This document shows, piece after piece, positions 5,685-13,643 of a stretch of 19,069 bases of DNA. Both the position numbers and the translations under genes were made by a program. The notes under the pieces were generated by a model. That model was not told the DNA's origin. It worked only from the letters and a program-made list of their open reading frames with translations, and made no database searches. The first letter of the stretch is position 1, and each line of letters opens with the position of its first letter. This DNA is from Candidatus Thorarchaeota archaeon (lineage in GTDB: Archaea; Asgardarchaeota; Thorarchaeia; Thorarchaeales; Thorarchaeaceae): NCBI GenBank assembly GCA_020348985.1, contig CP070761.1, positions 156,331 through 175,399 on the forward strand, given 5' to 3'.

Positions 5685-6635
5685 TTACTCAAGGGCACCG
5701 GCACAAGAAGATCCGAATCCAGCCGTGCAGCCAAAACAGTGACTTCCCGTCACGATTTCACGGGTTCTATGGGAGGCACGATCAAAGAGATTGACTTGTC
5801 GGGGTGTAGTGACAACTGGAAGTTCGAGGGCGAAATTGAAATCGCAATCATAGAGAAGTCCATCCCAACCAACGCAGACCTGATGGCGGCACATCAGTTT
5901 GTCCAAAGTGAGAGGATTAAACGATTCCTCAAGGAGCTGCTGGTATTGAGCGGATTTTTGCCCCGCTTCCAGCATTTGTCTAAACCGGCCAATAGGCATG
6001 TTGGTTATGGTCAACAGGCGGTTGAATTGGATATCGAATTCTGAAGACAGTGTTTCTTTGTAGGTTTTTTCAAGCTTGGATTGATCAGGAGGCAGGAAAG
6101 CATCTTCCGGATTGAAGACCAGATTCAATTCCAGCTTGGGATTGATTCCGTAGCCCACGGCATTGAGCTCCCTCAGAATCTGAATGCTTCTCTTGAACAC
6201 TCCTTTTCCTCGCTGCCGATCCACATCTTCCTCCAAATAGCATGGCAACGATCCAACCAATCGTACCCTAAGATCCCGATACATCTTCATATGTCCTCTC
6301 AATTCCGGATCCAGAAGTACAGTGAGGTTTGTGCGAACCTGAACGTTATGGTTTCTGTCAACTAATGCTTCTAGAAATCTGGGAAGGGAGGGATTCAATT
6401 CAGGTGCCCCGCCTGTGATGTCCACAAGTTCTGGGTGAATCTCATCGGCGACTTTTAGGACATATTTCATGAGGTCCCAATTCATGATATCAGTACTCTC
6501 TGGCGTGGCTTGTACATGACAGTGAGTACAAAGGTGATTGCACCTATTTCCCACATTCACCTGAAGCGTGCTATGAGTTAGTCCAGTCAATTTGGACCCT
6601 GTTGCGCTTACCATTCGTTGACTAAACGTCGACAT
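5685..6635 (-). CDS. arsS: Arsenosugar biosynthesis radical SAM protein ArsS-like (TIGR04167, DUF3641 C-terminus)
   Basis: ATG at 6635 after GAGGTG; TLQVNVGNRCNHLCTHCHV (CxxxCxxC), DITGGAPELNP, SLPCY, VDRQRG, ITNMPIGRF, LMCR, YDCDFN, HCFGCTAGFGSSCAGAL. Confidence 0.93.
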   Translation of the reverse strand: MSTFSQRMVSATGSKLTGLTHSTLQVNVGNRCNHLCTHCHVQATPESTDIMNWDLMKYVLKVADEIHPELVDITGGAPELNPSLPRFLEALVDRNHNVQVRTNLTVLLDPELRGHMKMYRDLRVRLVGSLPCYLEEDVDRQRGKGVFKRSIQILRELNAVGYGINPKLELNLVFNPEDAFLPPDQSKLEKTYKETLSSEFDIQFNRLLTITNMPIGRFRQMLEAGQKSAQYQQLLEESFNPLTLDKLMCRHQVCVGWDGLLYDCDFNFALELPVVTTPRQVNLFDRASHRTREIVTGSHCFGCTAGFGSSCAGALE

Positions 6636-6691
6636 TCTCTGCACCTCTTCGGCCAATCCCCAACACAAAAGCGTCTCATATAGATTTGGAG

Positions 6692-6705
6692 ATTGAGGAC
6701 TCAAT
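6692..6705. promoter_or_regulatory. Palindromic site upstream of arsS (candidate operator)
   Basis: ATTGAG-GA-CTCAAT, just upstream of a weak TATA-like AAATCTATAT on the minus strand. Confidence 0.35.
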
Positions 6706-6751
6706 GTTGCGAAGGAAGATTTGCTTTTGGCAATAGATGGTCCAAGGACAT

Positions 6752-8266
6752 TTACTCTGTGGACTTTGATCTGAACTCCCTTCCTTCTTTCTTGCAAAGT
6801 ATCTGGATCACGTTTCTGCCAGTATAGATGCTGCCCGGGACACCTCCTCCTGGCAATACCCAATGTCCTGCCATGTAGAAGTTGTCCAAGCCTGGCAAGG
6901 TGCGTGGAATCAATTCTGTCAGAGTGCTCCTTGTCAACAACCAGCCCATCGGGGAGCCCTTGTCGTTCAGGGTGTATCTCCAAGAAGTGTAGGGAGTGGC
7001 AACATCCGTCATCTCGATCTGAGAGCTAATCCCCGGATAGTGAACGTCAAGACGTTTGATTATCTCCTCTGCAATCTGTTTCTTGACTTCCTTGTATTCG
7101 TCATGATTCTGTCGGAGATCATACCAGTAGTCCCAATCAGTTTCAAGCATGACCTGAATGACGGTCTTTCCTTCAGGAGCAAACGCGTCACCGTAATTCA
7201 TAACTCTCAATGGGAGACAAGTTATGGCACGCCCACCATATTCGAGTGGTTCCTTCATAATGTAGATAGTAAATGGAGCCTCTTTCTCAAACACTCTATC
7301 GACACCTAGAGTCACAATCACCATTGGATCATAGGGTTTCCAGGTGTCGTAGCGCTTCTGGATTTTTGAATCGACATACTTGCCGCCAAGCATGTCATAG
7401 ATCGTGCTTCTACCATCAGCGGCGGATACGACAATGTCCGCTCTGTGCTCTGTCTCATCTGATAGGACTACACCAACGGCCACATCGTCTTCAACTAGAA
7501 TCTTCTCTACTTTGGCCCGATACTGAATCTCGCCGCCCAGCGACTCGTATTTCTTCACAATTGCTTCTATGAATTCATGGCAACCACCTTTGAAGAGACC
7601 CAGCAGTCCTGCTGCAACTGTTGCCATTATCATGATCACGAACCAGATTGCGACTGTCGGCGTAAATAGATTCTTGAAGAGAATCTTCAGAAATGGATCT
7701 TTCAGGTACTCTGAGTATCCTGTCGCAGACTTGGACCACTTTCCAGTGAAATACTTCATGAAGCCTCGCATGTTCCACATGTCTTTCAGAGTATCAAAAC
7801 GACCTCTGAGCTCGGGTGGACTAGTACTCATTCCAAGATCGGTCAAAAGTGGAGAGTCCTTCATCCAGTCGACCTCCTTGACGAACTTCCGAATCTCATC
7901 TGCGTCTTCTGGAGAGAGCTCGATAAGGTCCCGTTCCAGTTTCTCGAGGTCCATTGTGAATTCGACAGATTTGGTTCCTGTTTCGTCAACAAATCGCATG
8001 TACTTGGTCATGTCTTCGATTTCATAGGACCCAACTGCACCAATCTCTTTGTACACGTCATAGATTTGTGTACCTGGCTTGTGGCAGATTAGAAAGTGGA
8101 TTCCCCCATCTATCAGGTAGTCACCTCTTCTCCAAACGGCAGCGACACCCCCTGGCTTCGTGTGATACTCGAAGATCTTGCTTTCGTAGCCATTCATCTG
8201 CGCATAGCAGCCTGTTGATAGTCCTCCCAAGCCCGCTCCAATAATGATCATTGACTTCTTACTCAT
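6752..8266 (-). CDS. Phytoene desaturase (CrtI)-family NAD(P)/FAD-dependent oxidoreductase; substrate unknown
   Basis: IIIGAGLGGL Rossmann motif, FE..PGG, DGGIHFL, DVATPYT, LPGLDNFYMAGHWVLPGGGVP; GAGGAGG SD. Confidence 0.9.
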   Translation of the reverse strand: MSKKSMIIIGAGLGGLSTGCYAQMNGYESKIFEYHTKPGGVAAVWRRGDYLIDGGIHFLICHKPGTQIYDVYKEIGAVGSYEIEDMTKYMRFVDETGTKSVEFTMDLEKLERDLIELSPEDADEIRKFVKEVDWMKDSPLLTDLGMSTSPPELRGRFDTLKDMWNMRGFMKYFTGKWSKSATGYSEYLKDPFLKILFKNLFTPTVAIWFVIMIMATVAAGLLGLFKGGCHEFIEAIVKKYESLGGEIQYRAKVEKILVEDDVAVGVVLSDETEHRADIVVSAADGRSTIYDMLGGKYVDSKIQKRYDTWKPYDPMVIVTLGVDRVFEKEAPFTIYIMKEPLEYGGRAITCLPLRVMNYGDAFAPEGKTVIQVMLETDWDYWYDLRQNHDEYKEVKKQIAEEIIKRLDVHYPGISSQIEMTDVATPYTSWRYTLNDKGSPMGWLLTRSTLTELIPRTLPGLDNFYMAGHWVLPGGGVPGSIYTGRNVIQILCKKEGREFRSKSTE

Positions 8267-10347: not shown

Positions 10348-10590
10348 TCACTCAATCTTCGCCTTTGCACTTCTCCAGACTAGGATTCCATCAACAACGC
10401 GATAAACCGAGTGTAACAAGGCAAAGAAGATGATGCTCAATAGGAACAACAGCATCGCATCTCCACCAGTACCGAACGTGGGTGATGTTTCAAGCAGATA
10501 CGCCATCAAACCAATGGCTGCCAAAGCCTGGAGAATGGCGAGGAAGAACTGAAACACGAGTCGGATTAGGGCTGATCTAGTTTCTCCCAT
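10348..10590 (-). CDS. Small two-TM membrane protein
   Basis: MGETRSALIRLVFQFFLAILQALAAIGLMAYLL...AMLLFLLSIIFFALL; ATG 10590 preferred over TTG 10671. Confidence 0.65.
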   Translation of the reverse strand: MGETRSALIRLVFQFFLAILQALAAIGLMAYLLETSPTFGTGGDAMLLFLLSIIFFALLHSVYRVVDGILVWRSAKAKIE

Positions 10591-10673
10591 CGAAACCACT
10601 GATTGAGAAATCTGCACACCGGTAAATGAACCTTCTGTAATTCTCGCTGCGGTTCTTGCAGGCAGCTTCAACT

Positions 10674-11468
10674 CTATTCATTGAGGGTGATCATCATCCC
10701 CCACTTACCAATGCTCAACTGAAGATTGTCTCGGTATGACTTTGCGTAGCCTTCTTCTATGCGAATTCTGGAGTCCAATCTGACTTGTCGAATCTGGTCC
10801 CCCCAGAGGACAAGTGTTATCGAACCTGAGTCATCAGTCAATGTCGCATCAGCTACTTTCAGTTCCTCTCCAGTCTTTCTGGATGTCACGGTCCGCGTAC
10901 TTGCGATACCGTCCACATGGCCTTCGACGATTATCCTTTGCCGTCCGTCGTGAATGTCTCCGATTCTTGACATTGCTTTTGGATATCTTTCTGTGATTCT
11001 CTTCTCGTAGTAGATTCCGTCCCAAGAGTGTTCATGGGTCCTACCTATCTGTACAAAACCAATCTTCTGATAGAAGAGATTCGTTCTTTGATTCCATTCG
11101 GGTGTCCCAAGAACCCACAGGTCAGCTGAAGGATACTTGTCCCAAATGAGTTCGAAGGCTCTCGAGCCGATGCCCTGTCTCATGTAGTCGGGGTCAACCC
11201 ATATCCTCTCACATACTTGATATCCTGGACCTCTGTCTCCTACGATGAACCCTCCAACGATATCGCTGTCAATGAGTATCGTGTAGTATTGGAGATACCG
11301 ATTCTTGATCTTGTCTATATTCCATTCCACCGAGTCATACCCTGGGGGGCCTCCTGGTCCAGGAGCTCCAAACTCCGAGTCAGAGTCAAATGCTCTCTTG
11401 CAGGAGTCAGTTAGCTGTTTTGCTTCGTCTATTGCTGCATTCCGTATTTTGATTGAGTCTTGACTCAA
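10674..11468 (-). CDS. GNAT N-acetyltransferase fused to a C-terminal SSB/RPA-type OB fold
   Basis: GNAT: IWVDPDYMRQGIGS (motif A), TPEWNQRTNLFYQKIGF. OB fold (10674-10973): IGDI..VEGHV..RTVTSRK..VADATLTDDSGSITLVLWG..IRIEEGYAKSYRDNLQLSIGKWG. Confidence 0.9.
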   Translation of the reverse strand: MSQDSIKIRNAAIDEAKQLTDSCKRAFDSDSEFGAPGPGGPPGYDSVEWNIDKIKNRYLQYYTILIDSDIVGGFIVGDRGPGYQVCERIWVDPDYMRQGIGSRAFELIWDKYPSADLWVLGTPEWNQRTNLFYQKIGFVQIGRTHEHSWDGIYYEKRITERYPKAMSRIGDIHDGRQRIIVEGHVDGIASTRTVTSRKTGEELKVADATLTDDSGSITLVLWGDQIRQVRLDSRIRIEEGYAKSYRDNLQLSIGKWGMMITLNE

Positions 11469-11474
11469 TAGTGT

Positions 11475-11537
11475 AATCTCCTGAAGAGAATCGCAGATCT
11501 ATGAGTCATGTATTCTTCTCTCATAGAATCCGAGATT
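11475..11537 (-). promoter_or_regulatory. Intergenic stem-loop that could mask the SD of the GNAT-OB gene
   Basis: TCTATGAG/CTCATAGA 8-bp stem (11498-11527) within an AATCTC/GAGATT pair overlapping the GGAGAT SD. Confidence 0.35.
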
Positions 11538-11547
11538 GATGCATTGA

Positions 11548-13575
11548 CTACGAATAGGTCCTGTCTTGATAGAACACCAGACTCTTGACAGTTACCGGAA
11601 AGACCTGCCCCGAATGAAGTGGGGGGCCAATGTCGATCCAATCTCCTTCTTCCAGAAACAATTCGTCTAGACTAATTATGTTGTGTTGAATCGAGGTCTC
11701 TCGACGAGTCGTCAGTCCAACCATCTTGCCAATATCAGTTTGAAAGAGAAGAATCACCATCATCTTTCTGGCTACTGTCTCAGGAAGAGCGCGCTCAATA
11801 GATTTGACAAAATCTTGCAACCAGGAATAGGAGCGAAAGAGTGAATCTTTGAAATAGAGTGCGATTATGTCATCTCCCTCTTTCATGTCGTGTATCGACA
11901 AGGCACGATGGATTTCCTGCTCCACTACTCCGGGCCTATAGTTCTCTCTTGTTACATTGACTGGAATGATGGGGATATTGGTTATGGGAAACTCGATGCT
12001 TTTGTCAAAGTAACAGGTTGACCCGGACACAGAGAGAGAGAATGCTCCAGCACCGATGACAGTGGCTCGAATCTTATTTGGAGGTTCGATTACAGAGAGG
12101 CCTTGCTCTTCCACCAATGTTCTAATCTCATCCGCAAGCATAGCTCCGATGTCGTCGAACTCACCGTCACCACCATAGAGCAACTCAGAAACCCCCCCCG
12201 AGAATGAGTATTCATCCACTGGAATCGAGAAGTCCAAATCATCAGTCATCATCAGTTCCTTGGCAACTGTGCTCTCGGCCGGACCTTTCATCACTTCAAC
12301 CAATGCTTTCGCGTACTCTGTTGCAATAGTCCTTGCATCTTCTTCGCGGATTGTGTCGCCAATCTGATAGCTCATGCCTAGTTCTTTCATCAGGAATTGT
12401 GTGGGTCCATCTATTCTCCAGATTTTGAAGTTCTTTTCAATCCCAAGCAAACGACCACCAACGTTGATGCACGACGTACCAATGATCTGGCCGTTGGATG
12501 CAATCGCCAAGTTACTAGTTCCTCCACCCACGTCAACATTCAGGACTGTCTTCTGGGTGTGAAGCGTCTGATCAACAATCCCACTTCCCCTAGCACTAAG
12601 AAGGGACTCCAGATTGGGCCCTGCAGCTGCACTGACGAATCTTCCAGATTCGGAAGCTAGTCGGCTAACAATTTCGGCCGCATTCTGTTTCTTGGCCGTC
12701 TCTCCAGTGACTAGGACTGCTCCTGTCGCAACCATTTCTGGAGTTATTCCAGCTCTCTTGTATTCCTCCTCGCAGAACTCAATTACCGCCTCGATATCGA
12801 TGTTGTATCGGTCGACAAGCGGAGTGAAGATGATCGAGCTTTGGTAGATGATTTCGCGATTAACGAGGTTGAAACGATTCGAAATGTTGAGCAGGCTCCT
12901 CTCACGTTTCATAGTGAGCCGAGAGAAAATGAGGTGAGATGTGGATGAACCAATGTCAATGCCAACACTCAGAACCTTCATGTATTGAACGTTATCAGCC
13001 GGAAGATGGCCCATGAGAAGTTCTACGGGTTCGAATGGTTTGTCGGCTACTTCTTCGATCTTGGGGGCTTGTCGTTTTCGAGAAATCCTGATCTTCACTT
13101 CCTGCCCACAGTGAGAGGGCAGTTCCACTTCACCCTCTGAATTCAGAATTTGCATCTTCTCTTCATGAGAAACATCGACTTCCCCTTCGCAGACCGCACA
13201 ATGGAAACCAATCTCAACCGATTGGTCACTTCCAGGTATGACTGGTCCATTTCTTCGAGGAGATGGTTTCTTTTCTCGCCGATGTGCTCCTTCCCACGGG
13301 GCTTTTAACATCGAAAGCACCATGGTGAGAAGATTGTCAAACTCTTCACAAGGTTGTAGGACGGAGGCCAGAGCAGGCTTAAAGGAAGTGATTAGTCTGC
13401 GAATACCTTCAACTTCATCGGCTGCTTCTTGCTCATGCTCCTGCAGTAAGTCAACATACTTATCCTCGAACGACCTGCCTAGGTCTGCCCCATCTTCGCC
13501 AAAGTGCTGCTCTAGGAACTCCTTGGCAGCTGATATGACGTGCCGCTTCATGTTCTCAGCATTCTTGGTATTCAT
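11548..13575 (-). CDS. eutA: EutA-like (ethanolamine ammonia-lyase reactivase family) actin-fold ATPase with ~200 aa N-terminal extension
   Basis: LSVGIDIGSSTSHLIFSRL, IIFTPL, TGAVLVTGETAKKQNA, FVSAAAGPNLESLLSARGSG, NVDVGGGTSN, FSGGV, IRATVIGAG, PVTVKSLVF; ATG 13575 preferred. Confidence 0.9.
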   Translation of the reverse strand: MNTKNAENMKRHVISAAKEFLEQHFGEDGADLGRSFEDKYVDLLQEHEQEAADEVEGIRRLITSFKPALASVLQPCEEFDNLLTMVLSMLKAPWEGAHRREKKPSPRRNGPVIPGSDQSVEIGFHCAVCEGEVDVSHEEKMQILNSEGEVELPSHCGQEVKIRISRKRQAPKIEEVADKPFEPVELLMGHLPADNVQYMKVLSVGIDIGSSTSHLIFSRLTMKRERSLLNISNRFNLVNREIIYQSSIIFTPLVDRYNIDIEAVIEFCEEEYKRAGITPEMVATGAVLVTGETAKKQNAAEIVSRLASESGRFVSAAAGPNLESLLSARGSGIVDQTLHTQKTVLNVDVGGGTSNLAIASNGQIIGTSCINVGGRLLGIEKNFKIWRIDGPTQFLMKELGMSYQIGDTIREEDARTIATEYAKALVEVMKGPAESTVAKELMMTDDLDFSIPVDEYSFSGGVSELLYGGDGEFDDIGAMLADEIRTLVEEQGLSVIEPPNKIRATVIGAGAFSLSVSGSTCYFDKSIEFPITNIPIIPVNVTRENYRPGVVEQEIHRALSIHDMKEGDDIIALYFKDSLFRSYSWLQDFVKSIERALPETVARKMMVILLFQTDIGKMVGLTTRRETSIQHNIISLDELFLEEGDWIDIGPPLHSGQVFPVTVKSLVFYQDRTYS

Positions 13576-13643
13576 GGTCGTTCTTCCTTGCATCAATGAG
13601 CTGCTGAATTCTGAAGGATATCCAACTGAATATAAGGAATATG

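Follow-up and report, generated by a model that had tools for sequence, protein, structure and literature searches.

Does a Thorarchaeota genome encode an acetyltransferase joined in a single chain to the fold of a protein that binds single-stranded DNA (an SSB), and if so, what might such an enzyme do? The question is raised by an open reading frame (ORF) at positions 10674..11468, on the minus strand of a 19,069-nucleotide stretch of Candidatus Thorarchaeota archaeon DNA (assembly GCA_020348985.1, contig CP070761.1, positions 156,331 to 175,399), which we call the window. The encoded protein joins an acetyltransferase domain of the GNAT family to an oligonucleotide-binding (OB) fold of the SSB type. 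We find that the fusion is real and selectively maintained, conserved but optional in many Asgard archaea of sediments. It is a new, Asgard-centred combination of two known kinds of domain. Concerning its function, the reading that we favor, with a probability of about 0.38, is that of an amine acetyltransferase which is either docked on single-stranded nucleic acid or switched by it, and for which the preferred acceptor would be a strand-bound protein.

The features of the gene are as follows. All conservation counts, here and below, refer to 76 extracted copies of the fusion.

10674..11468, minus strand: GNAT-OB gene, one uninterrupted ORF of 264 amino acids (aa) plus stop, TTG start
11478..11482, minus strand: AGGAG, a Shine-Dalgarno-like motif 9 nucleotides (nt) before the TTG; role putative, from the sequence
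10983..11468, minus strand: GNAT acetyltransferase domain, residues 1-162 (Pfam PF13508 and PF00583, Foldseek, profile against the PDB)
11331..11354, minus strand: loop with the subfamily signature GGPPGYDS (residues 39-46), lying between model helices 1 and 2
11163..11183, minus strand: acetyl-CoA pyrophosphate loop MRQGIGS, residues 96-102 (Q/R-x-x-G-x-G/A motif)
11070..11105, minus strand: second signature TPEWNxRTxxFY, residues 122-133 (T122, P123, W125, N126 and Y133 in 76/76)
10971..10973, minus strand: ATG codon of M166 at the domain junction, probable relic start of a once-separate ssb gene
10677..10973, minus strand: SSB-type OB fold, residues 166-264, with no C-terminal tail (Pfam, NCBIfam, profile, OB-only model)
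10803..10805, minus strand: W222, aligned by HMMER with the base-stacking W56 of SsoSSB, the SSB of the crenarchaeon Sulfolobus solfataricus (W in 74/76)
10746..10748, minus strand: Y241, aligned by HMMER with W75 of SsoSSB (Y, F or H in 69/76)
10734..10736, minus strand: Y245, aligned by HMMER with F79 of SsoSSB (Y or F in 75/76)

One reading frame, two domains

The protein has a simple layout, with residues 1-162 forming the GNAT domain and residues 166-264 a single OB fold. Homologues have ATG where this gene has its TTG start (position 11468), and upstream of the TTG just 10 further in-frame codons are open, giving an open frame of 274 aa. Full-length homologues with 65-77% identity are found in Thorarchaeota and related Asgard archaea, and carry the labels 'GNAT family N-acetyltransferase' or 'replication factor A1' in public records.

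The N-terminal domain scores above the curated cut-offs of Pfam Acetyltransf_7 (PF13508; 38.1 bits, cut-off 27) and Acetyltransf_1 (PF00583; 33.7 bits, cut-off 20.7). Comparison of the structure model with solved structures using Foldseek gave a probability of 1.00 to many GNATs, with template modeling (TM) scores by target of 0.6-0.73 for a query model with a predicted local distance difference test score (pLDDT) of 66. PaiA (1tiq) was the first of the top matches, followed by 3fnc and 8osp, and SpeG was also among them. The glycines of the pyrophosphate loop are kept (G99 in 71/76, position 101 G or A in 76/76), with M or H instead of Q/R at the first position and R97 alongside. The invariant Y133 lies at the usual position of the general-acid tyrosine of GNATs, where it would presumably play that part in catalysis. 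The loop between helices 1 and 2 is the usual place of acceptor binding in GNATs. Within it P41 is found in 76/76 and Y44 in 74/76 of the fusion copies, and both are present in 22/22 free-standing bacterial relatives.

Two motifs, AF[DH]SD...G[AS]PxPGGPPGYDS in the helix 1-2 loop and W-x-L-[GD]-TPxWNxRTxxFYxKxGF, mark the domain in sequence as a distinct, unnamed and uncharacterised GNAT subfamily. Both are also kept in free-standing proteins of about 160 aa in Chloroflexota, Armatimonadota, Acidobacteriota, Bathyarchaeota and others. When a profile of the subfamily (A4) was run against the PDB, the best solved match was PaiA of B. subtilis (1tiq; E 1.4e-13, over nearly the full domain length), followed by a PaiA-like Lactobacillus enzyme, the polyamine acetyltransferases 2bei, 8a9o and 9dsb/2fl4, and RimI-type enzymes. 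The domain reaches the cut-off of no curated NCBIfam family, scoring 20 bits for PaiA-type enzymes (NF053587; cut-off 250) and 24.6 bits for RimI (TIGR01575; cut-off 86.4, E 2e-5). Feature and fold searches of a protein atlas returned only generic GNAT clusters and the family's own Thorarchaeota cluster. Members of this GNAT subfamily in other organisms (P0134, P0170, P0242, P0167 and P0237) have as their fusion partner a SWIM zinc finger, pentapeptide repeats, a core of transglutaminase-like type or an AAA_18 kinase-like P-loop domain, and a fusion to a second GNAT also occurs.

The C-terminal domain is above the curated cut-off of Pfam Ssb-like_OB (PF21473; 28.3 bits, cut-off 24), reaches that of tRNA_anti-codon (27.2 bits, cut-off 27), and matches the NCBIfam SSB model PRK06461 over residues 166-259 with E 3.9e-16. 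The score of 59.6 bits lies below the whole-protein cut-off of 188 for a canonical archaeal SSB, as expected since only one domain matches, and the tail is absent. A profile (A3) built from the OB part, its relatives and the genome's own SSBs matched SsoSSB (1o7i/2mna; E 3e-19) ahead of RPA from P. abyssi and human SOSS-B1/hSSB1. An AlphaFold model of the OB part alone (pLDDT 93.6) is a five-stranded barrel in which a helix separates strands 3 and 4, and it superimposes on 1o7i with a TM score of 0.87 and a root mean square deviation of 1.6 Å. The next fold matches were 2k50, hSSB1 with single-stranded DNA (ssDNA), and the OB folds of RPA. HMMER alignment to SsoSSB pairs R192 with R28 and V194 with I30, in addition to the three aromatic residues listed above. 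R192 and V194 are each found in 71/76 copies, and the positions that contact ssDNA in SsoSSB are the best-conserved residues of the domain.

Much of this architecture had been perceived in the initial annotation, made from the sequence by itself. It described one uninterrupted ORF of 264 aa with a complete GNAT and OB fold, as the ORF and the Pfam scores bear out, and an SSB motif pattern that is present as DDSGSITLVLW and IRIEEGYAKSY. It equated W56, W75 and F79 of SsoSSB with W, Y and Y, in agreement with the HMMER alignment, and noted the lack of an acidic tail; the protein ends 3 residues past the last OB strand. Structure prediction, which it had proposed, gives a confident SSB fold for the OB part, while the full-length model is moderate (pLDDT 66, predicted TM score 0.64). 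It also knew of no characterised protein of this architecture, and our literature searches for a GNAT combined with an SSB-type OB fold found neither a characterised protein nor a paper.

Distribution, origin and surroundings of the fusion

The initial annotation allowed that the fusion might be peculiar to this assembly. It is not. In a 90%-identity collection 390 relatives match with E 0.001 or better, and the 120 among the matches listed all span at least 96% of the query. An exhaustive search added about a dozen more 50%-identity clusters that share its length and architecture, with metagenomic relatives at as little as 29% identity. Full-length or near-full-length copies are present in about 69 of 400 Asgard genomes, belonging to Thorarchaeia, Hermodarchaeia and two further families. 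In the family to which the window belongs, 42 of 85 other genomes have it, against 9 of 19 in the Hermodarchaeota family, 14 of 22 in the third family and 3 of 135 in the fourth. Twelve genomes carry two or three copies.

The mean pairwise identity is 0.52 for the GNAT domain and 0.50 for the OB domain, and the divergences of the two correlate with r = 0.87. Because the domains are equally conserved and diverge together, they have evolved as one unit under purifying selection. In a quick tree rooted at the midpoint there are two clades of Thor paralogues. Inside one of these the sequences from Hermodarchaeota make up a single clade (support 99), which suggests lateral transfer into Hermodarchaeota.

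Could the fusion nevertheless be an artefact, in which adjacent genes were joined by an assembly or sequencing error or a wrong gene call? We give this next to no credence. About 80 copies, found in about 69 genomes that were assembled independently and include closed single-contig ones, have the same continuous frame free of stops, and the window itself lies inside a single contig of 3.16 Mb. The one indication in its favor is a metagenome contig of 1.7x coverage with a TAG at the junction, to which we return below. For the GNAT-OB family the many independent stop-free copies refute the artefact.

The origin of the OB part can be approached through the SSBs of the same genome (G000:C1), which has three separate SSB-type OB genes with tails.

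G000:C1:504154-504417 (L001): SSB-type OB gene, RGG/glycine-arginine-rich tail, 192 aa
G000:C1:205519-205782 (L002): SSB-type OB gene, RGG/glycine-arginine-rich tail, 177 aa
G000:C1:1478802-1479029 (L003): SSB-type OB gene, basic Ser/Arg/Lys tail, 169 aa

The OB part of the fusion is closest to the first RGG-tailed SSB (34% identity, gap-free, E 1e-19), and so derives from an ssb gene. Since the genome keeps its three tailed SSB genes, the fused domain is, on its sequence, a tail-less ssb paralogue and not the housekeeping SSB. A free-standing tail-less SSB-type OB gene of 98 aa, 47% identical to the OB part of the fusion, was seen at L086:3001-3581. It is followed by an 84-aa TRAM-domain gene, and genes for FEN1/XPG and an AP endonuclease adjoin.

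The junction carries a probable trace of how the two parts were joined. The ATG at 10973, singled out in the initial annotation as a possible separate start, is indeed the codon of M166. Methionine is the commonest residue there (42/76 copies, the others having I, L, T or V), and free-standing OB proteins begin exactly at this position. The low-coverage metagenome contig mentioned above (L085:2-469; 798 nt) holds a divergent member in which a TAG at the GNAT/OB junction is followed by ATG, reading ...PY-TAG-ATG-TPIGDL... where its closest fused relative has PYEMTPIADL. This in-frame TAG is either a sequencing error or a two-gene state. Given this GNAT-TAG-ATG-OB arrangement and the prevalence of M166, the fusion probably arose by loss of the stop codon between adjacent, coupled GNAT and ssb genes, the simplest route to it. 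We found no Shine-Dalgarno-like motif before ATG 10973 in the window, and M166 is not retained in divergent members, so that a separate OB product is not supported as a conserved feature.

Genes around the fusion were clustered for 43 Asgard loci, and Pfam families were counted for the 148 genes within two positions of it. There is no conserved operon in the 43 loci. Synteny is local only, with a PEMT-like methyltransferase in 14, a convergent MFS transporter in 13 and EutA in 6, and the commonest Pfam families are MFS transporters (11/148), S-adenosylmethionine (SAM) and PEMT/ICMT methyltransferases, EutA and PAS. In the window itself, no neighbor of the fusion travels with it. Comparison with a genome of the same genus for an insertion or deletion was limited by sequence divergence, the EutA homologue being 44% identical. 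The 37 bacterial GNAT-only loci have no common context, and their recurring 'cluster 1' is a mixture of unrelated ABC ATPases in which UvrA is just one member. In one of these 37 loci, from an Armatimonadota genome (L055:6668-9616), the free-standing GNAT relative is directly followed by uvrA. A divergent metagenomic locus (L168:394-4095) has a pyrimidine-dimer glycosylase (Pyr_excise) and a DEAD-box helicase less than 5 kb from the fusion, as a single case.

Several other genes of the window deserve a brief description. A 682-aa EutA-like protein (PF06277, E 1e-135) at 11548-13596 on the minus strand has an additional N-terminal region of about 200 aa; its homologues in related genomes match residues ~204-678 only and are therefore without the extension, and eutB and eutC are not in the window. 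On the other side of the fusion, an ORF of 107 aa (10348-10671, minus strand) starts with TTG right after the GNAT-OB stop and has apparent hydrophobic, membrane-like segments. The 43 related loci contain no homologue of it, no family model matches it, and it might not be a genuine gene. An aldehyde:ferredoxin oxidoreductase running off the start of the window lies back to back with a 113-aa ThiS/Urm1-like protein (3-2392). At 5685-8266 (minus strand) a radical-SAM/DUF3641 ORF occupies 5685-6983 and a flavin amine-oxidase-like ORF 6752-8266. As listed, the two share about 230 nt, and the downstream gene therefore probably starts at a later codon than the listed one. A DUF2064 gene adjoins this pair.

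Possible function and acceptor

Having established the architecture and distribution of the fusion, what might it do? Both domains have the residues needed for their textbook activities. Nucleic-acid binding, catalysis and the nature of the acceptor are inferences. The OB fold would bind ssDNA or RNA through its aromatic and basic residues, as in SsoSSB and hSSB1. This binding would place the N-terminal GNAT at exposed single strands, or switch it on there, and the GNAT would use acetyl-CoA to acetylate a primary amine on a ligand that sits at the strand or next to it. The acceptor of choice would be a lysine or the N-terminus of an SSB/RPA-type, chromatin or RNA-binding protein. The GNAT domain is acidic, with an isoelectric point (pI) of 5.05, and its putative acceptor loops are rich in acidic and aromatic residues, which fits a cationic amine, be it lysine, an N-terminus or a polyamine. 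In our ranking, strand-bound proteins are followed by polyamines or other small cationic amines as a close second, and then by nucleic acid or aminoacyl-tRNA; a repurposed OB fold that no longer binds comes last among the options. Fused genes often encode interacting proteins. It is this Rosetta-stone logic, the precedent set by SsArd1 (whose targets include SSB and Alba), and loop features resembling those of N-terminal acetyltransferases that lead us, by analogy, to put strand-bound proteins first.

A number of observations weigh against acetylation of a strand-bound protein. The acceptor-site motifs are equally kept in the free-standing bacterial relatives, which have no nucleic-acid module, and the acceptor is therefore probably common to bacteria and Asgard archaea. 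The best solved relative, PaiA, is a polyamine and not a protein acetyltransferase. The gene is optional rather than part of a core machinery: a genome of the same genus, 98% complete, has neither the fusion nor the GNAT, its best match (4e-21) being an SSB only, and four copies in four genomes are broken by stops, frameshifts or truncation. The neighbors in the window are metabolic or unplaced (the EutA-like ATPase, the 107-aa membrane ORF, a SAM methyltransferase, a C_GCAxxG protein and other metabolic genes), and no replication, repair or RNA family is among the 25 commonest Pfam families of the 148 neighbors. The full-length model is of modest confidence, so that any geometry between the domains read from it is tentative, and the case as a whole is drawn from sequences and models.

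The same observations bear on the interpretation in the initial annotation, an acetyltransferase targeted to ssDNA or RNA that modifies nucleic acid or proteins of repair and replication. It is partly supported, the architecture being intact and the ssDNA-contact residues kept across the 76 copies. The choice of target has fared less well, given the neighbor families, the optional status of the gene, and closest GNAT relatives that are free-standing bacterial enzymes with a polyamine acetyltransferase as their nearest structure. We think it unlikely that the protein is a strand-templated acetyltransferase, positioned or activated through the OB fold on exposed ssDNA or RNA, that marks either proteins of the SSB/RPA type or the nucleic acid (for instance in the manner of N4-acetylcytosine, ac4C).

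The alternative that comes nearest is a polyamine or small cationic-amine acetyltransferase, which we regard as doubtful. The OB fold would put the GNAT where such amines concentrate, on RNA or ssDNA, or make its activity dependent on the strand, and acetylation of spermidine, spermine or the like would strip positive charge and free the amine from the nucleic acid. The profile and Foldseek matches to PaiA, SpeG and further polyamine acetyltransferases point this way, as do a weak NCBIfam match to SpmdActasePaiA, the low pI, and the acidic and aromatic acceptor-side residues D28-S-D30, Y44-D45 and W125, which suit a cationic substrate. So do the free-standing relatives in many bacteria with no conserved context. 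However, sequence similarity among GNATs is a poor guide to substrate, PaiA does not share the GGPPGYDS loop in the alignment, and tethering is of little use for a freely diffusing substrate. The MFS transporters that are the commonest Asgard neighbors might be seen in the same light, but they are restricted to closely related genomes and are convergent with the fusion, and hence not co-transcribed with it.

A smaller chance again is given to acetylation of the nucleic acid, either at an exocyclic base amine as in ac4C or at the α-amine of an aminoacyl-tRNA in the manner of TacT, AtaT and KacT, where the OB fold would hold the single strand or tRNA for the GNAT. The match of the OB part to the tRNA_anti-codon model and a weak match to KacT (5zgn, E 9e-4) speak for it. 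The patchy distribution, the paralogues and the probable lateral transfer would suit a conflict or accessory gene, and it has been proposed that GNATs found in defence loci modify DNA (PMC12839542). On the other hand, the acceptor side is acidic, and the free-standing relatives manage with no nucleic-acid module. None of the 43 loci has a conserved small ORF flanking the fusion up- or downstream, and there is consequently no antitoxin candidate such as TacAT, AtaRT or KacAT would require. PADLOC had no match for the locus, PHROGs gave a generic acetyltransferase only, and IMG/VR contained no full-length copy and one weak partial GNAT match. The RNA cytidine acetyltransferases TmcA and NAT10 are, moreover, large and coupled to a helicase. 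The least probable of these readings is that the OB fold has given up nucleic-acid binding and serves an ordinary GNAT as a module for oligomerisation, protein docking or regulation. OB folds are versatile; this one is near neutral (pI 7.3) and no longer has the C-terminal tail that serves canonical SSBs in recruiting partners, and the same GNAT subfamily is elsewhere fused to the unrelated modules listed above. Yet the ssDNA-contact residues, with W222, R192, V194 and Y245 to the fore, are the best conserved of the domain, and this would be unexpected had binding been lost.

To our knowledge, few enzymes are fused to an OB fold of the SSB type, and such a fusion indicates where an enzyme works even before its substrate is established. 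Asgard archaea are the closest prokaryotic relatives of eukaryotes, and in eukaryotes acetylation regulates RPA and hSSB1. In the archaea, an acetyltransferase directed at single strands could be an early form of the control of ssDNA responses by acetylation and, if it marks SSB/RPA-type proteins, a precursor of the way in which RPA and hSSB1 are controlled. If the acceptors are polyamines, it would provide local control of the charge on nucleic acid. A function for the fusion would in addition give one to the GGPPGYDS subfamily of GNATs, widespread in bacteria, and the small size of the fusion protein, 264 aa, should make expression and assay straightforward.

Comparison with known systems

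TmcA and NAT10 are large and contain a helicase as well as a tRNA-binding domain. They resemble the fusion in coupling a GNAT to a module that handles nucleic acid, but are absent from the domain, sequence and fold matches of the GNAT-OB protein. The toxins TacT, AtaT and KacT act on an amine carried by a nucleic acid, that of aminoacyl-tRNA. They share with the fusion a GNAT and a patchy, accessory distribution, whereas the fusion has no antitoxin partner, its match to KacT is marginal, and the toxins have no OB fold.

Closer in size are SsArd1/Naa10 and RimI, small monomeric GNATs like that of the fusion. Among the substrates of the small archaeal enzyme SsArd1 are SSB and Alba, both of which it acetylates at the N-terminus (PMC5390088). 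The P-x-x-Y loop and the Y153-Y154 pair of the fusion resemble the peptide-holding elements of SsArd1/hNaa50 (Tyr37 and Tyr153/154), if the positions are assumed to be equivalent. The matches to RimI are weak (TIGR01575, E 2e-5; 9mto, E 4e-9) and confined to core residues 58-144, and SsArd1 itself is not among the matches of the A4 profile at E 0.001 or better.

The polyamine N-acetyltransferases PaiA and SSAT are likewise small single-domain GNATs of about 160 aa, and give the best match both by profile and by fold. PaiA is a spermidine/spermine N1-acetyltransferase (PMC4964394). Its identity to the GNAT of the fusion is ~18-20%, it lacks the GGPPGYDS and TPxWNxRTxxFY loops, and it has no OB fold.

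For the OB part the natural comparison is with SsoSSB (1o7i, 2mna and 7wcg) and hSSB1/SOSS-B1 (5d8e, 5d8f and 4owt), which belong to the same single-OB subtype, PF21473. SSBs of this type bind single-stranded DNA as well as RNA (PMC10684826). The stacking and basic residues W56, W75, F79, I30 and R28 of SsoSSB all have aligned counterparts in the fusion, and by its sequence the domain would bind single-stranded DNA or RNA. In contrast to SsoSSB and hSSB1, it has no flexible RGG-rich or acidic C-terminal tail, and its N-terminus is joined to an enzyme.

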